DNA of 32,000 nucleotides. Source: Halomicrobium mukohataei DSM 12286 (lineage in GTDB: Archaea > Halobacteriota > Halobacteria > Halobacteriales > Haloarculaceae). The stretch covers positions 840,001-872,000 of the forward strand of contig NC_013202.1 in the NCBI RefSeq assembly GCF_000023965.1, given 5' to 3'. Position numbers and translations under genes: made by a program. Shown in pieces: positions 5,472 to 30,407 of this stretch (position 1 is the first letter of the stretch; every line of letters begins with the position of its first letter). The notes beneath the pieces are model-generated. The model saw nothing but the letters and a program-made list of their open reading frames with translations, was not told where the DNA came from and did not search any database.

Positions 5472-5543
5472 TCGGGAACAGTTCGCTCTTATCCGACGGT
5501 AAGGACGGGTGGCAGATCGAGAGGCAGTTCTACCCTCGACTTA

Positions 5544-5621
5544 TACTGCCGGCTGTAACTTCGTGAAGATCTTCGCCACCCCGGGGTGGCGAAATTGTTC
5601 ACAGATTTATAGCCGGTAGTA
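5544..5621. mobile_element. MITE-like palindromic element, copy 1 (78 bp), flanked by TTA/TTA
   Basis: TACTGCCGGCTGTAAC...central hairpin CGCCACCCCGGGGTGGCG...TTATAGCCGGTAGTA. The termini are inverted repeats of each other. The 3-bp direct repeats TTA lie at 5541-5543 and 5622-5624. It is intergenic, between the small lipoprotein gene and the stop of the TRAP permease gene. Confidence 0.6.
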
Positions 5622-5634
5622 TTACCGGGCCCGG

Positions 5635-8322
5635 CTACGCGGCGTCGGCGGTCGCTCCGGAATCGCCGCGGGGGGCCGCCCGCCGGTTCTTCGCCAGCAG
5701 CGCGACCAGCATCGCGAGCCCGACGGCCCGGAGCAGCAGGTCGGCGGTCAGAGAGACCGAGCCGCCGCCGAGCCCCAGCAGCGCCGTCACGTCGTAGCCG
5801 GCCGACACCGGGAGCCCGGGAGCCATCAACAGGAGCGAGCTGACCGCCAGCCCGGCCCGTTCCCAGCGGTCGAGGGGCGCGTAGACGAAGCCGATCACGG
5901 TGCCGGCCAGCGCGACGACGCCGAGGAAGACGCCGACGACGGGGACGAACACCTCCGGGAGCGACCAGCCCAGATCCAGCAGATCGGCCGGGGTGGCGAC
6001 GCGAAACTGCTCGCCCAGGGGTAGCTCCGCCGCGTCGTCCTTCTCCCGGAGCAAGACGATGCCGGGGACCAGCACGAACGCGAAGGGGACGATCGCCTTG
6101 TTGAGCGACAGCGAGAACGCCTCGATGCCCGTCTGGAAGGGGTCCGACTTCGCGATGCCCGAGGCCGCGTAGGCGGCGACGGCCACCGGCGGCGTGATGT
6201 CGGCGATGACGCCGAAATAGAGGATGAACAGGTGCGCGGCGAGTTCGGGGATACCGAAGGTCACGAGCGCGGGCCCCAGCATCGACACGAGGATGATGTA
6301 GGTGACCGTCGTCGGCATCCCCATCCCGAGGATGATCGACGCGATGGCGGTGATGACCAGCAGGAGGACCAGCGAGCCCCCGGCCAGCGAGCGGATGAGC
6401 GCGACTAGGTTCGGCCCCAGCCCGGAGACGCTGATCACGCCGGGGATGATTCCCGCAGCCGCGACCGCGACGACGACCGGGACCGCGGTCCGGGCACCGC
6501 TGTCCATCGACTTGAGCACGAAGGTACCGAGCCGAACGAGCCCGTTGTCGCCCGCCGCCGGGCGACCGACGGCCGTCGAGAGCCCGTCGGCGGCCTCGTC
6601 GACCGCGGGATCGAGCGCGAGCCACGACGCGGTCAGGCGCGGCTTCGAGAGCAGTGTCAGGACGCCCGCCGCGATCGCCAGTCGGCCCACGGTGCCAAGC
6701 GTCGCCGCGGCGGCCCCACCGATCGATAGCCCGCCCGGACCGCCGCCGCTCAGTGCGGCGACGAGGGGCGCGCCGGTCGACCACTGTGCGAGGAACTGCC
6801 CCAGGCCGAGCGCCAGGAGGAGGGCGACGAGTCGCCCCCGCGTTTCGTCGCTGTAGGCCGCGACGAGCGTGATCAGCGCGACGATGGCCACGAGCGTGAA
6901 CCACGCCGAGCGCGCGACCGAGAGCCGAGCGCCGATGAGGTAGTACAGCAGGAGGAAGATGGGGACGAGGTAGAACCAGCCCGTCCAGAGGTGTCGCCGG
7001 ATGTCGACGACCGAGTCGGGATCGAGCCCCCCGATACCCAGCCGCGAGGCCTCGAAGTGGACCATCACCCAGACGCCGAAAAAGAAGACGACGGCCGGGA
7101 TCGCGGCGGCGACGATCACGTCGGCGAAGGGCGTCGCGGTGTACTGGACGATCAGGAAGGCCGCGGCACCCATCACCGGCGGGAGGATCTGACCGCCCGA
7201 GGAGGCCGAAGACTCCACGCCACCGGCGAACTCCGGGGAGTAGCCCGACCGTTTCATCAGCGGGATCGTGAACGCGCCGGTCGTGACCGTGTTCGCGATC
7301 GAGGAGCCGGAGATCGTCCCCATGAAACCACTCGCGAGGATCGACGCCTTCGCTGGCCCGCCCTTGCGCGTGCCCGTCGCCGCGTACGCGAGATCGATGA
7401 ACCACTGGCCCGCCCCGGACATCTCCAGGAACGCGCCAAAGAGGATGAAGATGTAGATGAACTGCACCGACACCGTCACCGGAATACCGAAGACGCCGTT
7501 CTCCGTGTTGTACCAGAGGTTCTGGACGATCGAGGGCCAGGTCAGCTCCGGGATCGAGAGGACGCCGACGTAGGCCGCGTCCTGTGGGATCAACACGCCG
7601 AAGCGGGCGTAGACGATGAACGCACCCACGATGAAGACGAGATAGAGACTGATCGCTCGCCGCGTCGCCTCCAGGACGAGCAAGACGCCGACGACGCCCA
7701 GGACGAACGCGTAGGACACGTTCGTCAGCGGGCCGAGCAGGCCGGCAACCGGGTCGAGGAACGTGAACACCTCCTGGATCGGCCGACCGGCGGGCAGCCC
7801 CAGCGCGCGCATGCGCTGGATCTCTCGGAAGTCGGTGACGAAGTACGCGCTCGACAGCACCGTGACTGCGATCAGGAGGAGATCCGACGGCGTCACGCGG
7901 TCGAGGTCGGGATCGACGAACAGCCAGGCCAGTCCGTCACCGATCGCGTCCATCGCCGAGACGAGCGGGCTGTCGGGGCCGAGCCGAGCGGCCGTCCGCG
8001 CTCGGAGTCCGCTGCAGGCCCGCGCGAATCGCCCGTCGCCCGTGCTCCCGGGGTACAGCAGGAACGTCAGCACGAGCGCGAAACCGACGTGAATGGCGTT
8101 GATCTGCAACAGCTGCAGGGAGGCGAGTTCGACCTCGCCGAGGACGGGCAACTCGACGGCGAAGACGAACCCGCGGGCGGCGAACCACATCTGGTAGGCC
8201 GAAAAGAGGATGCCGACGATCGAGACGACGACGCTGGCCACCCGCCGCAGCGAGCGTTTGCGTTCGATCTCCTGGAGCAAGTCGTCGGCCGCGACATCGG
8301 TATCGGTGATGCGAGGAGTCAT
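5635..8322 (-). CDS. TRAP transporter fused permease (TAXI-type, DctQ/DctM-like fusion)
   Basis: An 895-aa polytopic membrane protein with motifs typical of the fused TRAP-T permease (...GGPAKASILASGFMGTISGSSIANTVTTGAFTIPLMKRSGY...). Its ATG overlaps the stop of the DUF1850 gene (ATGA). Confidence 0.9.
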   Translation of the reverse strand: MTPRITDTDVAADDLLQEIERKRSLRRVASVVVSIVGILFSAYQMWFAARGFVFAVELPVLGEVELASLQLLQINAIHVGFALVLTFLLYPGSTGDGRFARACSGLRARTAARLGPDSPLVSAMDAIGDGLAWLFVDPDLDRVTPSDLLLIAVTVLSSAYFVTDFREIQRMRALGLPAGRPIQEVFTFLDPVAGLLGPLTNVSYAFVLGVVGVLLVLEATRRAISLYLVFIVGAFIVYARFGVLIPQDAAYVGVLSIPELTWPSIVQNLWYNTENGVFGIPVTVSVQFIYIFILFGAFLEMSGAGQWFIDLAYAATGTRKGGPAKASILASGFMGTISGSSIANTVTTGAFTIPLMKRSGYSPEFAGGVESSASSGGQILPPVMGAAAFLIVQYTATPFADVIVAAAIPAVVFFFGVWVMVHFEASRLGIGGLDPDSVVDIRRHLWTGWFYLVPIFLLLYYLIGARLSVARSAWFTLVAIVALITLVAAYSDETRGRLVALLLALGLGQFLAQWSTGAPLVAALSGGGPGGLSIGGAAAATLGTVGRLAIAAGVLTLLSKPRLTASWLALDPAVDEAADGLSTAVGRPAAGDNGLVRLGTFVLKSMDSGARTAVPVVVAVAAAGIIPGVISVSGLGPNLVALIRSLAGGSLVLLLVITAIASIILGMGMPTTVTYIILVSMLGPALVTFGIPELAAHLFILYFGVIADITPPVAVAAYAASGIAKSDPFQTGIEAFSLSLNKAIVPFAFVLVPGIVLLREKDDAAELPLGEQFRVATPADLLDLGWSLPEVFVPVVGVFLGVVALAGTVIGFVYAPLDRWERAGLAVSSLLLMAPGLPVSAGYDVTALLGLGGGSVSLTADLLLRAVGLAMLVALLAKNRRAAPRGDSGATADAA

Positions 8323-9890: not shown

Positions 9891-10062
9891 ACAGCCGGTA
9901 AGTCGGCCCTATGCTGGAGCGAGAGGTCGCTGCGATCGTCGGGAACGGGGCCGTCCGTGCCGGTCGGTACCACGCGTCCGACGAAAGCTTATGGTGCTGT
10001 AGCGACAAAATCCGCCAGCATCAACGGATGGACACCACGTCCACTAGCTGTTCTAATCGACC

Positions 10063-11330: not shown

Positions 11331-12716
11331 ATGGACAATTCACGCAGAGAGTTCATTCGTGCGGTATCGAGTACGTTCGTCCTCGCGGCTGGCGCTGGCA
11401 CGACCGTGGCCGCGACGGACTGTGGCAACGTTGCCGAGTGGGACCCGGACGCGACCTACAACGGCGGCGATCAGGTGACCTACGAGGGGTCCCTGTGGAC
11501 CGCCGAGTGGTGGACTCGGGGCTCCGCCCCCGAAGAGAGTAAAGCCGTCTGGACGCTCGAAGGGTCCTGTGGCGGCGACGGCGGGACGGGCAACGAGGGA
11601 CCGACGGCGTCGGTCAGCGCGTCCGCGACCACGGTCGAGCCCGGAACGACCGTCGACCTCGACGGATCGGGATCGTCCGACGCCGACGGGTCGATCGCCA
11701 GCTACGAGTGGGAGTTGGGCGACGGGACGACGGCGACCGGGGCGACGACGAGTCACAGCTACGACTCGACCGGGGACTACACCGTCACGCTCACCGTCAC
11801 CGACGACGGCGGAGCCACCGACAGCGCGACGACGGGGATCTCTGTCAGCTCCTCGTCGGGCGGCAACAGTGACGCCATCTTCTCCCCGTATCTCGGCACG
11901 TGGGGCGACATCCTCGGCGACACGCGGAACGCGAGCACCGACCGCGTCGTCCTCTCGTTCGTCGGCGACGGCACCGACGACGGGACGGTCACTCCCGCGT
12001 GGCTCACCGCGGACGGCGACCGGCCGCTCTCGGACCACGCCGACAAGATCAGCACGCTGCAAGACGAGGGCTACGACGTGTGGGTCGCCATGGGCGGCTG
12101 GGACGGCCGGATCGTCGCCAGGGACGCGAGCAGCGTCTCGGAGGTCAAAAGCGCCTACGAGACCGTCATCGACACGCTCGGCGTGACTCACATCGACATC
12201 GACGACGAGAACTACGACGAGCCCGGTCGTGACGGCACCTACTACGAGATGCGCAACGAGGCGCTCGCACAGATCCAGTCCGAGCGGCCGGACGTGAAAG
12301 TCACGTACACGGTGGCCGCCAGGCCCTCCGGGATCGTCAACGCCGACCACTGTCCCGGGAAAGACATGATCACCGACGCGCTGGAGAAGGGCGTCGAGCT
12401 GGAGTACATCAACATCATGACGATGGACTGGACCGACGTGGACACGACCCCCGAACGGGTCAAATCGGCCGTCGAGGGCACCGTCGACTGGATGAGCAAC
12501 GTCTATCCCGACAAGAGCGAGGCACAGCGGCGCGCGAAGCTCGGGTTCCTCCCCAACGTCAACGAGTCCGAGTGGTCGGTCAGCGACACCCAGAACGTCG
12601 CCGACTACGCGAAACAGCAGGGGATCGGAAACGTCAGCATGTGGGCGCTGCACCGAGACACCAGCGACTACGGCCACTCCGACGCCCTCTACCCCGTCGA
12701 GAGCGGGAGCAACTGA
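11331..12716 (+). CDS. Secreted GH18 chitinase with a Tat signal, a CBM5/12-type chitin-binding module and a PKD domain
   Basis: MDNSRREFIRAVSS is the Tat motif. AEWDPDATYNGGDQVTYEGSLWTAEWWTRGSAP is a chitin-binding module. DLDGSGSSDADGSIASYEWELGDGTTATG...YTVTLTVTDDGGATD is a PKD domain. The C-terminal TIM-barrel-like domain has the motif HIDIDDEN (GH18 DxDxE type). The start is the ATG at 11331, not the upstream Arg-rich extension. Confidence 0.8.
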   Translation: MDNSRREFIRAVSSTFVLAAGAGTTVAATDCGNVAEWDPDATYNGGDQVTYEGSLWTAEWWTRGSAPEESKAVWTLEGSCGGDGGTGNEGPTASVSASATTVEPGTTVDLDGSGSSDADGSIASYEWELGDGTTATGATTSHSYDSTGDYTVTLTVTDDGGATDSATTGISVSSSSGGNSDAIFSPYLGTWGDILGDTRNASTDRVVLSFVGDGTDDGTVTPAWLTADGDRPLSDHADKISTLQDEGYDVWVAMGGWDGRIVARDASSVSEVKSAYETVIDTLGVTHIDIDDENYDEPGRDGTYYEMRNEALAQIQSERPDVKVTYTVAARPSGIVNADHCPGKDMITDALEKGVELEYINIMTMDWTDVDTTPERVKSAVEGTVDWMSNVYPDKSEAQRRAKLGFLPNVNESEWSVSDTQNVADYAKQQGIGNVSMWALHRDTSDYGHSDALYPVESGSN

Positions 12717-12772
12717 AGCCGTCTCCCGCCAGCCGACAGCCTAATAGGGAGGCCGGCAAAATCCGGTGACAG

Positions 12773-13957
12773 ATGGTCGCTGGGAGTACGCTCGGAACGC
12801 TCGTGATCGCCGCCGCAGCGAGTCTGTTCATGGCCTGGGCGATCGGCGCGGGATCGTCCGGCTCGACGCCGTTCGCACCGGCGGTCGGGGCCAACGCCAT
12901 CTCGGTGATGCGCGCGGGCTTTTTCGTCGGGATTCTGGGTCTGCTCGGAGCGGTGTTACAGGGGGCCAACGTCACAGAGACGGTCGGGAGCGGGCTCGTC
13001 CTCTTTCCCGACGGTGGCGGCCTCTCGGCGATCGCGGCGACGATCGCGCTGCTGACTGCGGCAGTGCTGGTCGCGACCGGCGTCTTCACCGGCTATCCGA
13101 TCGCGACAGCATTTACCGTCACGGGTGCGGTCGTCGGCGTCGGGCTGGCGATGGGGGGCCAGCCCGCGTGGCCGAAGTACCAGCAGATCGTCGCTCTCTG
13201 GGTCGGCACACCGTTCGTCGGCAGCGGCGTCGCCTACGCCACGGCCCGCTTGCTCCGCACAGAGAACGTCCGCGAGCGTCTCTCGATCGGTGGGCTGGCC
13301 GGACTGGTCGGCGTGTTACTGGCGAACGTCGAGTTCACGGGCCTCGGACCCGACGGCGGCCCGGGTGCCCTCTCGGTCGCACTCGCACGCACGTTCGAGG
13401 GCGGAACCGGCGGCCGGGCGCTGGTCTCGCTCGTGCTCGGACTCCTGGTCGCCACGCTGGTGTGGTACGACATCCGCGAACACGGCGAGCGAGCACAGCG
13501 GCGATTCCTGCTGGTGATGGGCGGGCTCGTCGCCTTCTCGGCCGGCGGCAGTCAGGTCGGGCTGGCGATCGGACCGCTGTTGCCGCTGCTCGATACGTTC
13601 ACCGTCCCGATCGTCGCGGTGCTGCTTGGCGGCGGGATCGGCCTGCTCGCGGGCTCCTGGACCGGCGCACCCCGGATGATCAAGGCCCTCTCGCAGGACT
13701 ACTCCTCGCTGGGGCCGCGCCGATCGATCGCGGCGCTGATCCCCTCGTTCATGATCGCACAGACGGCCGTGTTCTTCGGGCTCCCAGTCTCGTTCAACGA
13801 GATCATCGTCTTCTCGATCATCGGGAGCGGCGCGGCCGCTGGCGGCGGGTCGGTCAGCGGCGAGAAGATGGGCAAGACGGTGCTGGCGTGGGTCGCCTCG
13901 CTGGGACTGGCGCTCGGCCTCGGCTACGGCGTCTTCAGCGCCGTAGCCATCCTGTAG
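12773..13957 (+). CDS. PiT-family inorganic phosphate (or sulfate) transporter, paralog 1
   Basis: 394 aa and polytopic. ...AWAIGAGSSGSTPFAPAVGANAIS... and ...GGSQVGLAIGPL... are the duplicated PHO4/PiT signature regions. Confidence 0.85.
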   Translation: MVAGSTLGTLVIAAAASLFMAWAIGAGSSGSTPFAPAVGANAISVMRAGFFVGILGLLGAVLQGANVTETVGSGLVLFPDGGGLSAIAATIALLTAAVLVATGVFTGYPIATAFTVTGAVVGVGLAMGGQPAWPKYQQIVALWVGTPFVGSGVAYATARLLRTENVRERLSIGGLAGLVGVLLANVEFTGLGPDGGPGALSVALARTFEGGTGGRALVSLVLGLLVATLVWYDIREHGERAQRRFLLVMGGLVAFSAGGSQVGLAIGPLLPLLDTFTVPIVAVLLGGGIGLLAGSWTGAPRMIKALSQDYSSLGPRRSIAALIPSFMIAQTAVFFGLPVSFNEIIVFSIIGSGAAAGGGSVSGEKMGKTVLAWVASLGLALGLGYGVFSAVAIL

Positions 13958-16308: not shown

Positions 16309-16823
16309 TGGAGCTCGATTTCGACGTGGTCGATCTCGGTCCCGCAGACCACCCCGAGGTAGGCGAGCGAGCCCCCGACTTCACCCGTCCGCTGGTCACC
16401 GACGAGTACTGGGCGGACGTGTCCCTGTCCGAGCTGGTCGCCGAGGACGACGATCCGACGGTGCTGGTCTGTCACTCCATGGACGGGGCCTTCCCGGCGA
16501 CGTACGCCTGGAACGAGATCCGCGAGCGCGAGTGGCACGCCGACGCCACCGTCGTCGGCCTGTCGATCTCGACGCCGTACGCCCACAAGCGCCTGCTCGA
16601 CGAGCGAGAGCTGGGCGACGACTACCGGCTGTACTCCGATCCCGCCAACGGCGTCGCCGAGGCGTACGGCATCGTCAACGATCTCGACGGGATGAGCGGC
16701 GTGGCCGAGCCCCGGCCGGCCGTGTTCGTCCTCGATAGCGACCGGACGATCGAGTACGCCTGGGTCGCCACGGAGTGGCCCGACTTCCCGGACTACGACG
16801 CGGTCGAGGCGGTCATCCGATAG
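16308..16823 (+). CDS. Redoxin/AhpC-TSA-like thioredoxin-fold protein
   Basis: MELDFDVVDLGPADHPEVGERAPDFTRPLV...VLVCHSMDGAFPATY...PRPAVFVLDSDRTIEYAWV. Its ATG shares 1 nt with the glutaredoxin stop (TGATG), which suggests an operon. Confidence 0.6.
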   Translation: MELDFDVVDLGPADHPEVGERAPDFTRPLVTDEYWADVSLSELVAEDDDPTVLVCHSMDGAFPATYAWNEIREREWHADATVVGLSISTPYAHKRLLDERELGDDYRLYSDPANGVAEAYGIVNDLDGMSGVAEPRPAVFVLDSDRTIEYAWVATEWPDFPDYDAVEAVIR

Positions 16824-19623: not shown

Positions 19624-19902
19624 TACTCGACCGGTCGGTCTCGACGTATTTAAGCGCACGTTCGGCGCGTCGAGTGGAATCGGGAGTCGCATCGTAAGCT
19701 GGTAGCATGTAGATATGCTTTCATTCAGGGCGTTGTAGCTGCTTACCGGTGAGCGTCTTCCCCGTAGCGACGCTCGCCGGGGCAGTCCGACAACCGTCCG
19801 TATCAGAGTCAACATCCTCGAAAAAAGAAAGCAGGTGATCTTTCCAGCAGGGGCCAGAGACAGAGCTCCAAGCGCGACGATAGGATACTCGAACAGAAGT
19901 CA

Positions 19903-19980
19903 TACTGCCGGCTGTCACTGTGTCACGATAGTCGCGACCGCGGGGTCGCAATGTTCTGTACAGACGGACAGCCGGCAGTA
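19903..19980. mobile_element. MITE-like palindromic element, copy 2 (78 bp), flanked by TCA/TCA
   Basis: TACTGCCGGCTGTCAC...GTCGCGACCGCGGGGTCGC...GACAGCCGGCAGTA has 15-bp perfect terminal inverted repeats. The 3-bp direct repeats lie at 19900-19902 and 19981-19983. Its orientation is inverted relative to copy 3. Confidence 0.65.
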
Positions 19981-19984
19981 TCAC

Positions 19985-20137
19985 CTACATCATGGCCTCG
20001 TAGAAGATGCTCAGCGCCAGCACGAAGCCACCAGCTAGTCCGATACCAATCGCGGCAAAATCGTTCCCTGGGATCCCACTAGCTATAATCGCCAGAAAGA
20101 GACTCACCGCGATTCCGAGTTTTGTATCGTCTTTCAT
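19985..20137 (-). CDS. Possible small membrane protein (50 aa, two hydrophobic segments)
   Basis: My own translation is MKDDTKLGIAVSLFLAIIASGIPGNDFAAIGIGLAGGFVLALSIFYEAMM. It is below the ORF-track size cutoff. It lies next to the AT-rich island, and its stop is 1 nt from the MITE copy 2 flank. Confidence 0.35.
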   Translation of the reverse strand: MKDDTKLGIAVSLFLAIIASGIPGNDFAAIGIGLAGGFVLALSIFYEAMM

Positions 20138-20340
20138 ATCTGCATTTTAACATCTTAGATTTATAAATTGCACTTATTATAGACAATCATATGGTTGTTT
20201 CTTTCAATTTATACTGTGTTCTATCTGTCAGACTGAATATTCAATAGAGGTAGGATTTTGTCTGAGTCTCGATCCTGTAAGCTTCGAGTAGAACCGCATG
20301 TACGCTCCACGACGACGGTTAATTTCACGCGAGTTCGGGA
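20138..20340. other. AT-rich island (by eye about one third G+C) in divergent-promoter position
   Basis: It contains runs such as TTTTAACATCTTAGATTTATAAATTGCACTTATTATAGACAATCATATGG, in strong contrast with the window composition. No credible ORF is present. Confidence 0.6.
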
Positions 20341-22721: not shown

Positions 22722-23135
22722 ATGAGTGAGGGCGGCACCTACACCCTCCTAATCGAGCGGACCGAGGACGGCACACTCGAAGTGGGCGCGCTCGGTTCGC
22801 TGTCGTTCCCGTCGGGATGGTACGCCTACACCGGGAGCGCGCTGGGCAGCGGCGGCTTCAGCCGCGTCGACCGTCACGAACGCGTCGCGGCGGGCGACCA
22901 CGACGTGCGCCACTGGCACGTCGACTACCTGCTGGGCGCGCCCGGGACCCAGCTCGATCACGTCGTCTGCTCGGCGGGCGTCGACATCGAGTGTGCGGTC
23001 GCCGACGCCGTCGCCGGCAGCCGCGTCCGCGAGTTCGGGAGCTCCGACTGCGACTGTGAGTCCCACCTCGCCTTCCACCCCGACCGGACGACGCTTCTGG
23101 ACGCCGTCGATCGAGCACACCGGGCGAACCGGTAG
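22722..23135 (+). CDS. DUF123 domain protein (GIY-YIG nuclease superfamily)
   Basis: GTYTLLIE...GWYAYTGSALGSGGFSRVDRHERV......HWHVDYLL... is the GIY-YIG-like core characteristic of DUF123. Confidence 0.7.
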   Translation: MSEGGTYTLLIERTEDGTLEVGALGSLSFPSGWYAYTGSALGSGGFSRVDRHERVAAGDHDVRHWHVDYLLGAPGTQLDHVVCSAGVDIECAVADAVAGSRVREFGSSDCDCESHLAFHPDRTTLLDAVDRAHRANR

Positions 23136-23148
23136 CGTCGGCCGGTCA

Positions 23149-23214
23149 TACTGCCGGCTGTCCGTCTGTACAGACCGTGGTCGCGAATATCGTGAAACGG
23201 TGACGCCGGCAGTA
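23149..23214. mobile_element. MITE-like palindromic element, copy 3 (66 bp, with a 12-bp internal deletion relative to copy 2), flanked by TCA/TCA
   Basis: TACTGCCGGCTGTCCGTCTGTACAGA...GGTGACGCCGGCAGTA. Its first 26 bp are identical to the reverse complement of copy 2. The direct repeats lie at 23146-23148 and 23215-23217, and the right one is the TGA stop of the thioesterase gene on the minus strand. The element fills most of the 79-bp gap between two convergent genes. Confidence 0.65.
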
Positions 23215-23667
23215 TCAGGAACTGTTCCCGTCGGTCTCGGCGTCGGCGAGCGCCGCGTCCCGCAGTTCGCGTTCGGCGTCGGTCTCGGCCGTGAGTTCGG
23301 GGACACCGGTCGGCTCGCCGTCGTCGAGCGCGACGAAGACGAAGTGGCCTTCGGTCGTGACCTCCGTCTCGCCGGTCGTCGGATTCTCTCGTTCGGCGCG
23401 CACGCGGACGCGGACGCTCGTCCGTCCGGAGTCGTAGACGTACGCCTCCGTGAGCGCGGTGTCGCCGACGGGGATCGGGCGACGGAAGTTCAGTCCGTCC
23501 ATCCGGGCGGTCACGCAGGGGTGGCCGGCAAAGCGCATCGCCGACATCGCGCCGATCTCGTCGAGCCACTTCATCACGATCCCACCGTGTGCGGTGTCGT
23601 AGTTGTTGGCGTGGTTGGGCTGGACGCGGTAGCGGTTCGTCAGATGGGTCGAAGCCAGCGTCGGCAT
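23215..23667 (-). CDS. Acyl-CoA thioesterase (hotdog fold, YciA/4HBT-like)
   Basis: ...VQPNHANNYDTAHGGIVMKWLDEIGAMSAMRFAGHPCVTARMDGLNFRRPIPVGD... is typical of hotdog-fold acyl-CoA thioesterases. Confidence 0.8.
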   Translation of the reverse strand: MPTLASTHLTNRYRVQPNHANNYDTAHGGIVMKWLDEIGAMSAMRFAGHPCVTARMDGLNFRRPIPVGDTALTEAYVYDSGRTSVRVRVRAERENPTTGETEVTTEGHFVFVALDDGEPTGVPELTAETDAERELRDAALADAETDGNSS

Positions 23668-23689: not shown

Positions 23690-23752
23690 GGGAAAAAGGC
23701 GCGGCTGTCGACTGTGTGTTGGCCGACAGCTTCGCCGCCCGTAGCGGCGAAG
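23690..23752 (-). terminator. Two adjacent GC hairpins followed (in the minus sense) by T5: a likely terminator of the 92-aa gene
   Basis: CTTCGCCGC-CCGTA-GCGGCGAAG (23730-23752) has a 9-bp stem. GCTGTCG-N13-CGACAGC (23704-23730) has a 7-bp stem. A5 on the plus strand at 23690-23694 is T5 in the transcript sense. Confidence 0.4.
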
Positions 23753-23779
23753 CGCTCCGCGAGGCGACGGTCGGCAGTG

Positions 23780-24058
23780 TCAGACCGCGACGCGCTCGAC
23801 GCCGGGCTCGATCTCCTCGGTCTCGTAGTCGGACTCGCTCTCGCCCCGGCGCTGGCGGAGCCAGCGTGCGGCCAGCCCGATCGTCACGACAGCGGCGACG
23901 AGCCCGAGGAGCCACAGCGCTGAATTGCCGCCCGCGTCCGCCGTCGCCGAGTCGGCGACCGGTTCGTCCGGCTCGCTCGCGGGTTCGGCGTCGGTGGTCT
24001 CGTCTCCCAGGGGGTCCGCGACGTTGATCTCGAACAGGGTGACGTTGTCGAATGCCAT
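23780..24058 (-). CDS. Small acidic protein with one C-terminal-half transmembrane segment (92 aa)
   Basis: MAFDNVTLFEINVADPLGDE...ALWLLGLVAAVVTIGLAARWLRQRR.... TATATATAAG lies about 28 nt upstream of the ATG. I did not recognise a family. Confidence 0.55.
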   Translation of the reverse strand: MAFDNVTLFEINVADPLGDETTDAEPASEPDEPVADSATADAGGNSALWLLGLVAAVVTIGLAARWLRQRRGESESDYETEEIEPGVERVAV

Positions 24059-29870: not shown

Positions 29871-29965
29871 ACCGGAACCGTCGTCAGCCGGGATCAAAGA
29901 GGTGGGTGCTCGTGTCAAGTGCTATGGGTCGGCGAGTGTGCTCGCCGGGAAATTCGTCGCAAAAA

Positions 29966-30334
29966 TAGTCCATCCTGGATATCGAACCGGAGCAAGACGG
30001 TCGCTCACTACGTTCGCGCTGCGACTTGCAGGGCTCGAATCCACTCCGTCGACGATTCCGCGGCTCGCGAGTTTGCGAGCCGCAGGAATAGTCCATCCTG
30101 GATATCGAACCGGAGCAAGACGGTCGCTCACTACGTTCGCGCTGCGACTTGCAGGGCTCGAATCCACTCCGTCGACGATTCCGCGGCTCGCGAGTTTGCG
30201 AGCCGCAGGAATAGTCCATCCTGGATATCGAACCGGAGCAAGACGGTCGCTCACTACGTTCGCGCTGCGACTTACAGGGCTCGAATCCACTCCGTCGACG
30301 ATTCCGCGGCTCGCGAGTGTGCTCGCCGCAGGAA
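29966..30334 (-). repeat. Three tandem 123-bp units contiguous with tRNA-Gln, each ending (in the tRNA sense) with a copy of the tRNA 3' half
   Basis: The units are 29966-30088, 30089-30211 and 30212-30334. The first two are identical, and the third differs at 4 positions. TAGTCCATCCTGGAT recurs at 29966, 30089, 30212 and 30335, the last being the real tRNA. Confidence 0.95.
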
Positions 30335-30407
30335 TAGTCCATCCTGGATTCGAACCAGGGTCGAAGCCCCCAGAAGGCTTCAGGATTGGCCACTACCCCA
30401 ATGGACT
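30335..30407 (-). tRNA. tRNA-Gln (anticodon CUG)
   Basis: A manual cloverleaf fits. The acceptor stem is AGTCCAT/ATGGACT. U8 and A14 are present, with a GG in the D-loop. The anticodon stem is AAGCC/GGCTT with loop TTCTGGG (C34 U35 G36). The T-arm is CCTGG-TTCGAAT-CCAGG and the discriminator is A. No CCA is encoded. Confidence 0.9.

Follow-up and report, generated by a model that had tools for sequence, protein, structure and literature searches.

Three short palindromic elements in the genome of Halomicrobium mukohataei DSM 12286 are, with a probability that we put at about 0.9, copies of a 78-bp non-autonomous DNA transposon (MITE) of haloarchaea. They lie in a window of 32,000 nt, which is the whole stretch of DNA that was analyzed. 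The triplets flanking the family members match on their two sides and three loci have a precise empty site in a close strain, which together strongly support a MITE with a 3-bp target-site duplication. The elements are small, non-coding and dispersed, with terminal inverted repeats, a duplication of fixed length and precise empty sites, all features of MITEs; the one MITE feature not found in the collections searched is a transposase-encoding transposon with the same ends. An earlier reading of the letters alone (the sequence-only reading) had proposed transposition, with REP-like or terminator hairpins as the alternative. The matching TNA flanks and the precise empty sites speak for transposition, and the elements are neither REP-like nor canonical terminator hairpins.

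Copies in the window

Copy 1 is a full-length 78-bp element on the plus strand at positions 5544 to 5621 (nhmmer E=2e-24), with its A-type end on the left. Its duplications, TTA at 5541 to 5543 and at 5622 to 5624, were read from the sequence and are borne out by the empty allele, and the whole stretch from 5541 to 5624 reads TTA-TACTGCCGGCTGT...ATAGCCGGTAGTA-TTA. Copy 2, likewise 78 bp long and on the plus strand, occupies 19903 to 19980 (nhmmer E=7.5e-18) between TCA at 19900 to 19902 and TCA at 19981 to 19983, both read from the sequence, so that 19900 to 19983 reads TCA-TACTGCCGGCTGT...ACAGCCGGCAGTA-TCA. Copy 3 is a 66-bp element on the minus strand at 23149 to 23214, delimited by the orthologues in relatives and by a profile search, and 23146 to 23217 reads TCA-TACTGCCGGCTGT...GACGCCGGCAGTA-TCA. 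Its left duplication (23146 to 23148) was read from the sequence and from the orthologues, and the right one (23215 to 23217) is, by the gene calls, the TGA stop codon of a 4HBT thioesterase gene on the minus strand. The positions and the direct TTA or TCA flanks thus agree with the sequence-only reading. Its estimate of about 70 percent identity between copies 1 and 2 at equal length comes to 74% over 84 nt with 78 bp each, and the first 26 nt of copy 3 align, as it had said, as the exact reverse complement of the last 26 nt of copy 2.

All three copies are intergenic by public gene calls, as had been claimed, with the right flank of copy 3 coinciding with the 4HBT stop codon. Copy 1 follows the TAG stop codon of a TRAP-transporter DctM gene (5635 to 8322, minus strand) at a distance of 13 nt. 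Copy 2 lies 4 nt beyond the stop codon of a 50-aa open reading frame within an AT-rich, strain-specific segment of about 650 bp. Copy 3 takes up the whole space between two convergent genes, DUF123 (22722 to 23135, plus strand) and 4HBT (23215 to 23667, minus strand).

The 13-mer terminus TACTGCCGGCTGT, with up to two mismatches allowed, has 8 occurrences in the window where 0.48 would be expected, and at least 8 occurrences were seen in 0 of 100 shuffles. Two matches, at 16620 and 24386, were set aside as chance, both being within coding genes. A profile built from 71 copies yields exactly copies 1 to 3 in the window plus a decayed fourth copy, a relic, at 23704 to 23779 on the minus strand (nhmmer E=0.085 in the window, with alignment to the consensus). 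The relic has degraded termini but still has its inner palindrome. It abuts the TGA stop codon (23780 to 23782, minus strand) of a 92-aa gene, and a counterpart is found at the same place in four relatives with nhmmer E values of 0.002 to 0.005.

Two other features of the window were recorded. The AT-rich segment that holds copy 2 extends from 19663 to 20338 between the TetR and Hjc genes, carries the 50-aa hydrophobic open reading frame (19985 to 20137, minus strand), stands in place of 13 nt in five close relatives and has no repeats at its ends. At 29964 to 30356, a 123-bp unit is repeated 3.2 times with 98% identity, adjoining a tRNA-Gln(CTG) gene at 30335 to 30407 (minus strand). The 3' half of this tRNA gene forms the start of the unit, which may have multiplied by tandem duplication or through repeated integration at the tRNA.

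Hosts and abundance of the family

We searched a collection of one genome per prokaryotic species with the pattern TACTGCCGGCN{40,70}GCCGGYAGTA, which leaves the flanks unspecified. At least 120 stretches matched, across genera. Among the matches listed, 99 are clearly palindromic members of the family; 71 of these are 78 bp long and the rest 70 to 80 bp. The pattern demands near-perfect termini, so the census is biased toward young copies.

The hosts in the Haloarculaceae are Halomicrobium, Haloarcula, Halovenus, Halapricum, Halorientalis, Salinirussus and Salinibaculum, together with many unclassified Halobacteriales MAGs; the Natrialbaceae contribute Natrarchaeobius and Halostagnicola. BLAST searches added copies on megaplasmids of Halomicrobium, Haloarcula, Natribaculum and Haloplanus. 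The complete 224-kb plasmid of Halomicrobium sp. LC1Hm (NZ_CP044130.1; loci L129 to L131, L151 and L152) carries 13 copies or relics, several of which begin directly after the stop codon of a gene, e.g., at 12941 and 70887. No family members were found in phage genomes or IMG/VR contigs.

In the MAG QS_5_68_33, identical 78-mers occur at different loci (L079, L088 and L091) with different duplicated triplets, which indicates recent movement. The family is compact, abundant and evidently recently active in Halomicrobium, Haloarcula, Halovenus, Halapricum and some Natrialbaceae. One weak similarity, between position 13770 of locus L124 and 9957 to 10006 of the window, proved to be the conserved promoter region of a DUF5828 gene and not a copy.

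Duplication of a TNA triplet

Among the 99 members listed, the left and right flanking triplets are identical in 81, most often as TCA (36) or TGA (34) and less often as TTA (6) or TAA (4), and most of the exceptions differ by one base. The expectation that copies in other genomes would have consistent 3-bp flanks is thereby borne out, in the TNA form. Two controls were used. The next-outer triplets are identical in only 4 of the 99 members listed, and the flanks are identical in 0 of 16 non-family chance matches of the same pattern (15 bacterial and one in Haloarcula vallismortis). The context extends further outward: C stands at position -4 in 61% and G at position +4 in 59% of the 99 members listed, and both together enclose the TNA in 35 of the 99 targets, compared with 4% of background TNA sites, which makes C-TNA-G the wider target.

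The elements begin and end with TA, and IS630-type MITEs are common in prokaryotes (PMC11602168), so we considered whether the family might be of the IS630/Tc1-mariner type, with TA at the tips of the repeats as the real duplication and the outer triplets as a mere target preference. Duplication of TA alone predicts that the flanks are independent of each other, whereas 80 of the 99 members listed have matching middle bases in their left and right triplets, and all four bases are in use there. A variable base that is copied shows that the duplication is the whole triplet, not TA alone. The empty sites described below carry TAA or TCA once, with no additional TA, and we give an IS630-type origin hardly any weight.

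Filled and empty sites in close relatives

Orthologous loci from five close relatives were retrieved through the proteins flanking the copies; for scale, the CNNM proteins of the window and of Halomicrobium sp. LC1Hm share 97% identity. Three clean filled-versus-empty comparisons were obtained among close Halomicrobium strains, each with one TNA in the empty allele, so that the empty sites foreseen at orthologous loci do exist.

The first is the site of copy 1. In the window genome, in strain KBTZ05 and in H. mukohataei GCA_012726095 it is filled, as TAA-[78 bp]-TAA on the other strand. A JGI metagenome contig and Halomicrobium sp. LC1Hm have no element and a single TAA, both reading ...GCCGGGCCCGG-TAA-GTCCAGCG... 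at this place. The other two are insertions private to GCA_012726095. One is a 79-bp member (L133, 20107 to 20185, compared with 12695 to 12792 of the window) that sits on the stop codon of a chitinase-like gene with the triplet duplicated; the window has no element there and a single TGA, the stop codon of the GH18/CBM5 chitinase-like gene on the plus strand at 12714 to 12716, which is an unoccupied target by comparison with GCA_012726095. The second private copy (L140, 6494 to 6571) coincides precisely with the stop codon of a gene for a ferredoxin, where the window genome, LC1Hm and KBTZ05 have no element. At both of these loci, the empty alleles of the window genome and of others hold a single TCA.

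Copies 2 and 3 have different histories. The segment of about 650 bp around copy 2 is wholly missing from the five relatives, and copy 2 therefore has no clean empty site. Copy 3 is an old insertion common to six Halomicrobium genomes, and its orthologues in the five relatives (L132 to L136) retain 78 bp. The shortfall of 12 bp in copy 3 that the sequence-only reading had noticed is thus explained as a loss of 1+11 bp in the window.

These comparisons also bear on the possibility that the elements are REP-like or PATE-like palindromes, which would leave the target unduplicated and owe their spread to recombination or to a Y1/HUH transposase (RAYT or IS200/IS605 TnpA). The elements resemble REPs in being short, strongly palindromic and just downstream of genes, and the failure to find a DDE partner is in keeping with such an origin. 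HUH-mobilized elements have neither target duplications nor terminal inverted repeats, whereas the family has true terminal inverted repeats, a direct 3-bp duplication with a co-varying middle base in 81 of the 99 members listed, and empty alleles with exactly one triplet. We therefore regard spread by an HUH enzyme or by recombination as very improbable.

Structure and folding of the element

The family consensus is TACTGCCGGCTGTAACTTCGTGAAGATATTCGCCACCCC in the left half and GGGGTGGCGAAATTCTTCACAGACTTACAGCCGGCAGTA in the right half. The element is made up of two transposon ends of about 39 bp placed head to head, with a slight left/right asymmetry. Each end starts with a terminal inverted repeat of 15 to 16 bp, TACTGCCGGCTGTAA, followed by a slightly asymmetric spacer and then by an inner GC-rich stem. 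In the terminal inverted repeat, positions 1 to 15 pair with 64 to 78 and are nearly invariant; no variation is seen among 71 copies at positions 1 to 4, 6 to 10 and 13. The left and right 39-bp halves are similar but differ at positions 16 to 19 and 27 to 29, which gives the element a left and a right end as in an IS. Conserved mismatches lie within positions 16 to 28, and the inner stem is formed by positions 29 to 37 with 42 to 50.

Copies 1 to 3 fold at -29 to -49 kcal/mol (z of -4 to -9), in line with the earlier description of the whole elements as palindromic hairpins. Over 65 distinct sequences, 79% of the cells pair, 21 of the 37 pairs have changed on both sides, and the true pairing register is better than all slid registers. 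Compensatory changes are found in the inner stem, where 7 pairs have 5 to 18 double changes each, counts that are inflated by the relatedness among copies, and where several independent types (CCA/TGG, CCG/CGG, CGA/TCG, CTA/TAG and GCA/TGC) occur. Some of the covariation would follow from a need of both ends to be bound by one transposase. A plain transposase-binding model does not need the compensatory changes of the inner stem, and these hint at an added constraint on the structure of the hairpin. In an Rfam search, the window had no match at the gathering threshold, and copy 1 had only sub-threshold matches to generic hairpins (miRNA precursors).

Size variants were found in metagenome contigs, two of 57 bp (L145, 1763 to 1819; L147, 141 to 197) and one of 94 bp (L148, 7770 to 7863). 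They have only the outer ~16 bp and the TGA duplication in common with the 78-bp form; their termini of about 16 bp are the same and their interiors differ. The variants in L147 and L148 are flanked by TGA on both sides, and that in L145 by TGA on one side only, its second end being degraded. Since nothing else is shared, the outer inverted repeat is probably the part required by the transposase.

Insertion at stop codons

The duplicated triplet is the stop codon of the incoming gene in 32 to 36 of the 99 members among the matches listed. With a crude gene caller, stop codons were the targets of 26% of the elements and made up 6.4% of intergenic TNA sites (p=4e-10). Within the 60-nt 3' flanks of genes, they accounted for 59% of targets against a background of 32% (p=8e-4). 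The excess also persists when each C..G context class is taken separately. Stop codons are occupied by copy 3, by the relic and by two of the three strain-polymorphic insertions. At a few loci, the reading frame continues into the element and ends at TAA (positions 13 to 15) or TGA (positions 21 to 23). Orientation relative to the neighboring gene is unbiased (11 versus 7).

TGA and TAA, like their opposite-strand forms TCA and TTA, fit TNA. Since the triplet is restored by the duplication, a gene hit at its stop codon stays intact. Because a stop codon is already 32% of the sites in the 60-nt flanks, we infer that a TNA target and the survival of insertions in short 3' flanks account for most of the bias, with a 1.8-fold excess left over.

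A position right behind stop codons and very stable folds could also mean that the elements are functional hairpins, that is, 3'-end, terminator or protein-binding palindromes that resemble each other through shared selection and not through mobility. The compensatory changes in the inner stem (7 pairs with 5 to 18 double changes, and at least one in 21 of 37 pairs) fit such hairpins as well. Mobility is nevertheless what the presence and absence of the element among near-identical strains, with the triplet duplicated, demonstrates. No T-run follows the stem, a scan for bacterial-type terminators gave no excess of terminator-like sites, and the lack of an orientation bias (11 versus 7) and of an Rfam family match also speaks against a conserved hairpin function. 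Old copies decay, as seen in the 12 bp gone from copy 3 and the degraded ends of the relic. We consider it improbable that selection on function explains the family, slightly less so than the HUH or IS630 origins. Some copies of the MITE may have been exapted as functional hairpins, and the long hairpin may have a role in shaping mRNA 3' ends.

Search for a partner transposase

By the mechanism that we propose, a DDE transposase supplied in trans would bind the outer ~16 bp of the element, cut the target with a 3-nt stagger and insert the element; integration duplicates the 3-bp T-N-A within C-TNA-G. Duplications of 3-bp TNA are made by the IS5-family subgroup IS1031, by some members of the subgroups IS427 and ISL2 and by PIF/Harbinger elements. 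The TNA duplication thus points to an enzyme like those of the IS5 subgroups or PIF/Harbinger, and such a transposase is suggested here by analogy in this one feature. ISH51, which may also make 3-bp duplications, plays no part in this argument. The termini start with TAC and not with the GG or GA of IS5-group ends, which leaves the class of the transposase a guess.

No transposase gene bounded by the family termini was found in about 1 Mb of loci around copies. A search of these loci for the termini, with two to three mismatches and either unpaired or paired at 0.5 to 3.5 kb, gave only truncated or degenerate MITEs or pairs of MITEs that enclose ordinary genes, e.g., the DUF5828 gene in L013. 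All-against-all BLAST of the loci revealed no repeated DNA of IS size, and a screen of the loci for low-GC open reading frames gave no transposase except one IS6. The complete LC1Hm plasmid has no intact transposase annotated and none with these ends; an ISH3-family fragment at 219796 to 220476 has unrelated ends. BLAST against PLSDB plasmids gave no partner, and the one extra match of a half-element BLAST against plasmids (18 nt, inside a Natronorubrum hydrolase gene) was due to chance.

We also designed a partner pattern that retains the 32-bp end and forbids the MITE center; in local tests, it matched 120 ends and let through 0 complete MITEs. It had no match in IMG/VR viral contigs, and among the matches listed in JGI metagenome contigs it found only the size variants, one truncated end and one chance match. 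The full-length IS with family ends for which the sequence-only reading had suggested a search did not materialize: no full-length autonomous IS ending in TACTGCCGGCTGTA was found in the loci, plasmids, viral contigs or metagenome matches listed. The size variants suggest that the parent may share only about 16 bp with the MITE, and the partner searches could therefore have missed it.

The transposases near copies are an IS1595, an IS6 and the ISH3 fragment, none of them flanked by family ends. The IS1595-family gene (294 aa) lies at 986 to 1870 on the minus strand, between the gene for an ABC-transporter ATPase and the genes for its membrane components, and is unrelated to the MITE; the gene calls agree with the earlier statement that it is the sole transposase gene in the window. 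A generic screen for TNA-flanked inverted repeats picked up an unrelated 1.3-kb element in a Patescibacteria MAG (L008, 4460 to 5771), whose 14-bp inverted ends, ATGTTAGCGTACCC, match perfectly and which is flanked by TAA on both sides.

Relation to known elements

Elements of the IS5 subgroups, PIF/Harbinger elements and Tourist-type MITEs resemble the family in their terminal inverted repeats, 3-bp T-N-A target, short non-coding derivatives and high copy number. Harbinger elements target T-W-A, whereas C or G predominates at the middle target position in the family, and the family host is archaeal. IS5-group ends have G-rich starts (GG or GA), unlike the family termini TACTGCCGG, and no transposase of any class was found with family ends in the collections searched.

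Whole-length imperfect palindromes of 70 to 150 bp near gene ends, which can fold in mRNA, are known as Correia/NEMIS elements in Neisseria, ERIC and RUP. Correia elements duplicate TA, and ERIC and RUP have other targets. The family shares with them the palindrome over the whole length and the position near gene ends, but they are bacterial, their sequences are unrelated and their targets differ. REP/BIME sequences with RAYT are likewise short GC-rich intergenic palindromes downstream of genes, but REPs have neither the terminal inverted repeats nor the target duplication of the family. REP/RAYT systems and IS200/IS605-derived PATEs insert beside a fixed oligonucleotide. PATEs also lack both target duplications and terminal inverted repeats (PMC3119063).

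MITEs have been described in haloarchaea, namely, MITEHsal1 to MITEHsal14 and ISH2 in Halobacterium and the HqIRS MITEs in Haloquadratum, which are non-autonomous, mobilized in trans and strain polymorphic, with inverted terminal repeats (PMC7002104; PMC3119063). MITEHsal2 and MITEHsal3 are about 370 to 410 bp long including duplications and ISH2 is about 520 bp, the duplications are longer (e.g., 7 bp for MITEHsal2), and the parent ISH class has been assigned by the termini (PMC7002104; PMC3119063). The family is also non-autonomous and strain polymorphic with inverted terminal repeats, but in contrast to these elements of several hundred base pairs it is 78 bp long, makes a 3-bp duplication and has no parent found. 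The SMR of Haloquadratum walsbyi is short, has inverted terminal repeats unrelated to known transposons and is mobilized in an unexplained way, with no target duplication reported (PMC3119063). It resembles the family in its size, its inverted repeats and the lack of a transposon relative found, whereas the family makes a regular 3-bp duplication.

In the literature searched, no named haloarchaeal MITE has this terminus, size or duplication, so the earlier claim of an apparently undescribed family stands within that literature. There, the terminus string occurred only in unrelated primer lists, and no papers tying a named MITE to Halomicrobium or Haloarcula were found. A 2024 automated census reports that archaeal MITE counts peak in a Halovenus genome and in that of an unclassified member of the Haloarculaceae (PMC11602168). 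These peaks fall in the same family and genus as many of our matches, and the census may therefore list these sequences unnamed. We conclude that the family is a new and probably unnamed member of a well-known kind of element.

Implications

Insertions of the element can serve as strain-level markers. The element also explains assembly breaks and spurious "hypothetical protein" calls over the repeat: short-read Logan contigs stop inside copy 1 (L003, at 12757) or at the end of copy 3 (L128, 66 nt past the 4HBT gene), showing that the repeat breaks assemblies. The many natural filled and empty alleles, e.g., those of the ferredoxin and chitinase-like genes in Halomicrobium strains, can be compared to learn how a 78-nt hairpin affects the 3' ends of archaeal mRNAs.

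Two testable questions follow, namely, which archaeal transposase is behind the TNA duplications and whether insertion at stop codons is due to targeting or to survival. We also entertain, as a speculative idea that is unlikely though not far-fetched, that the family is an orphan MITE homing to stop codons. Its archaeal transposase would prefer C-TGA-G or C-TAA-G at gene ends, where the stop codon is rebuilt, and the conserved hairpin, with the compensatory changes of its inner stem, would be kept for its action on DNA in transposition or on the 3' end of host mRNA. If this were true, the element would be a safe-harbor transposon that also shapes 3' untranslated regions across the Haloarculaceae.
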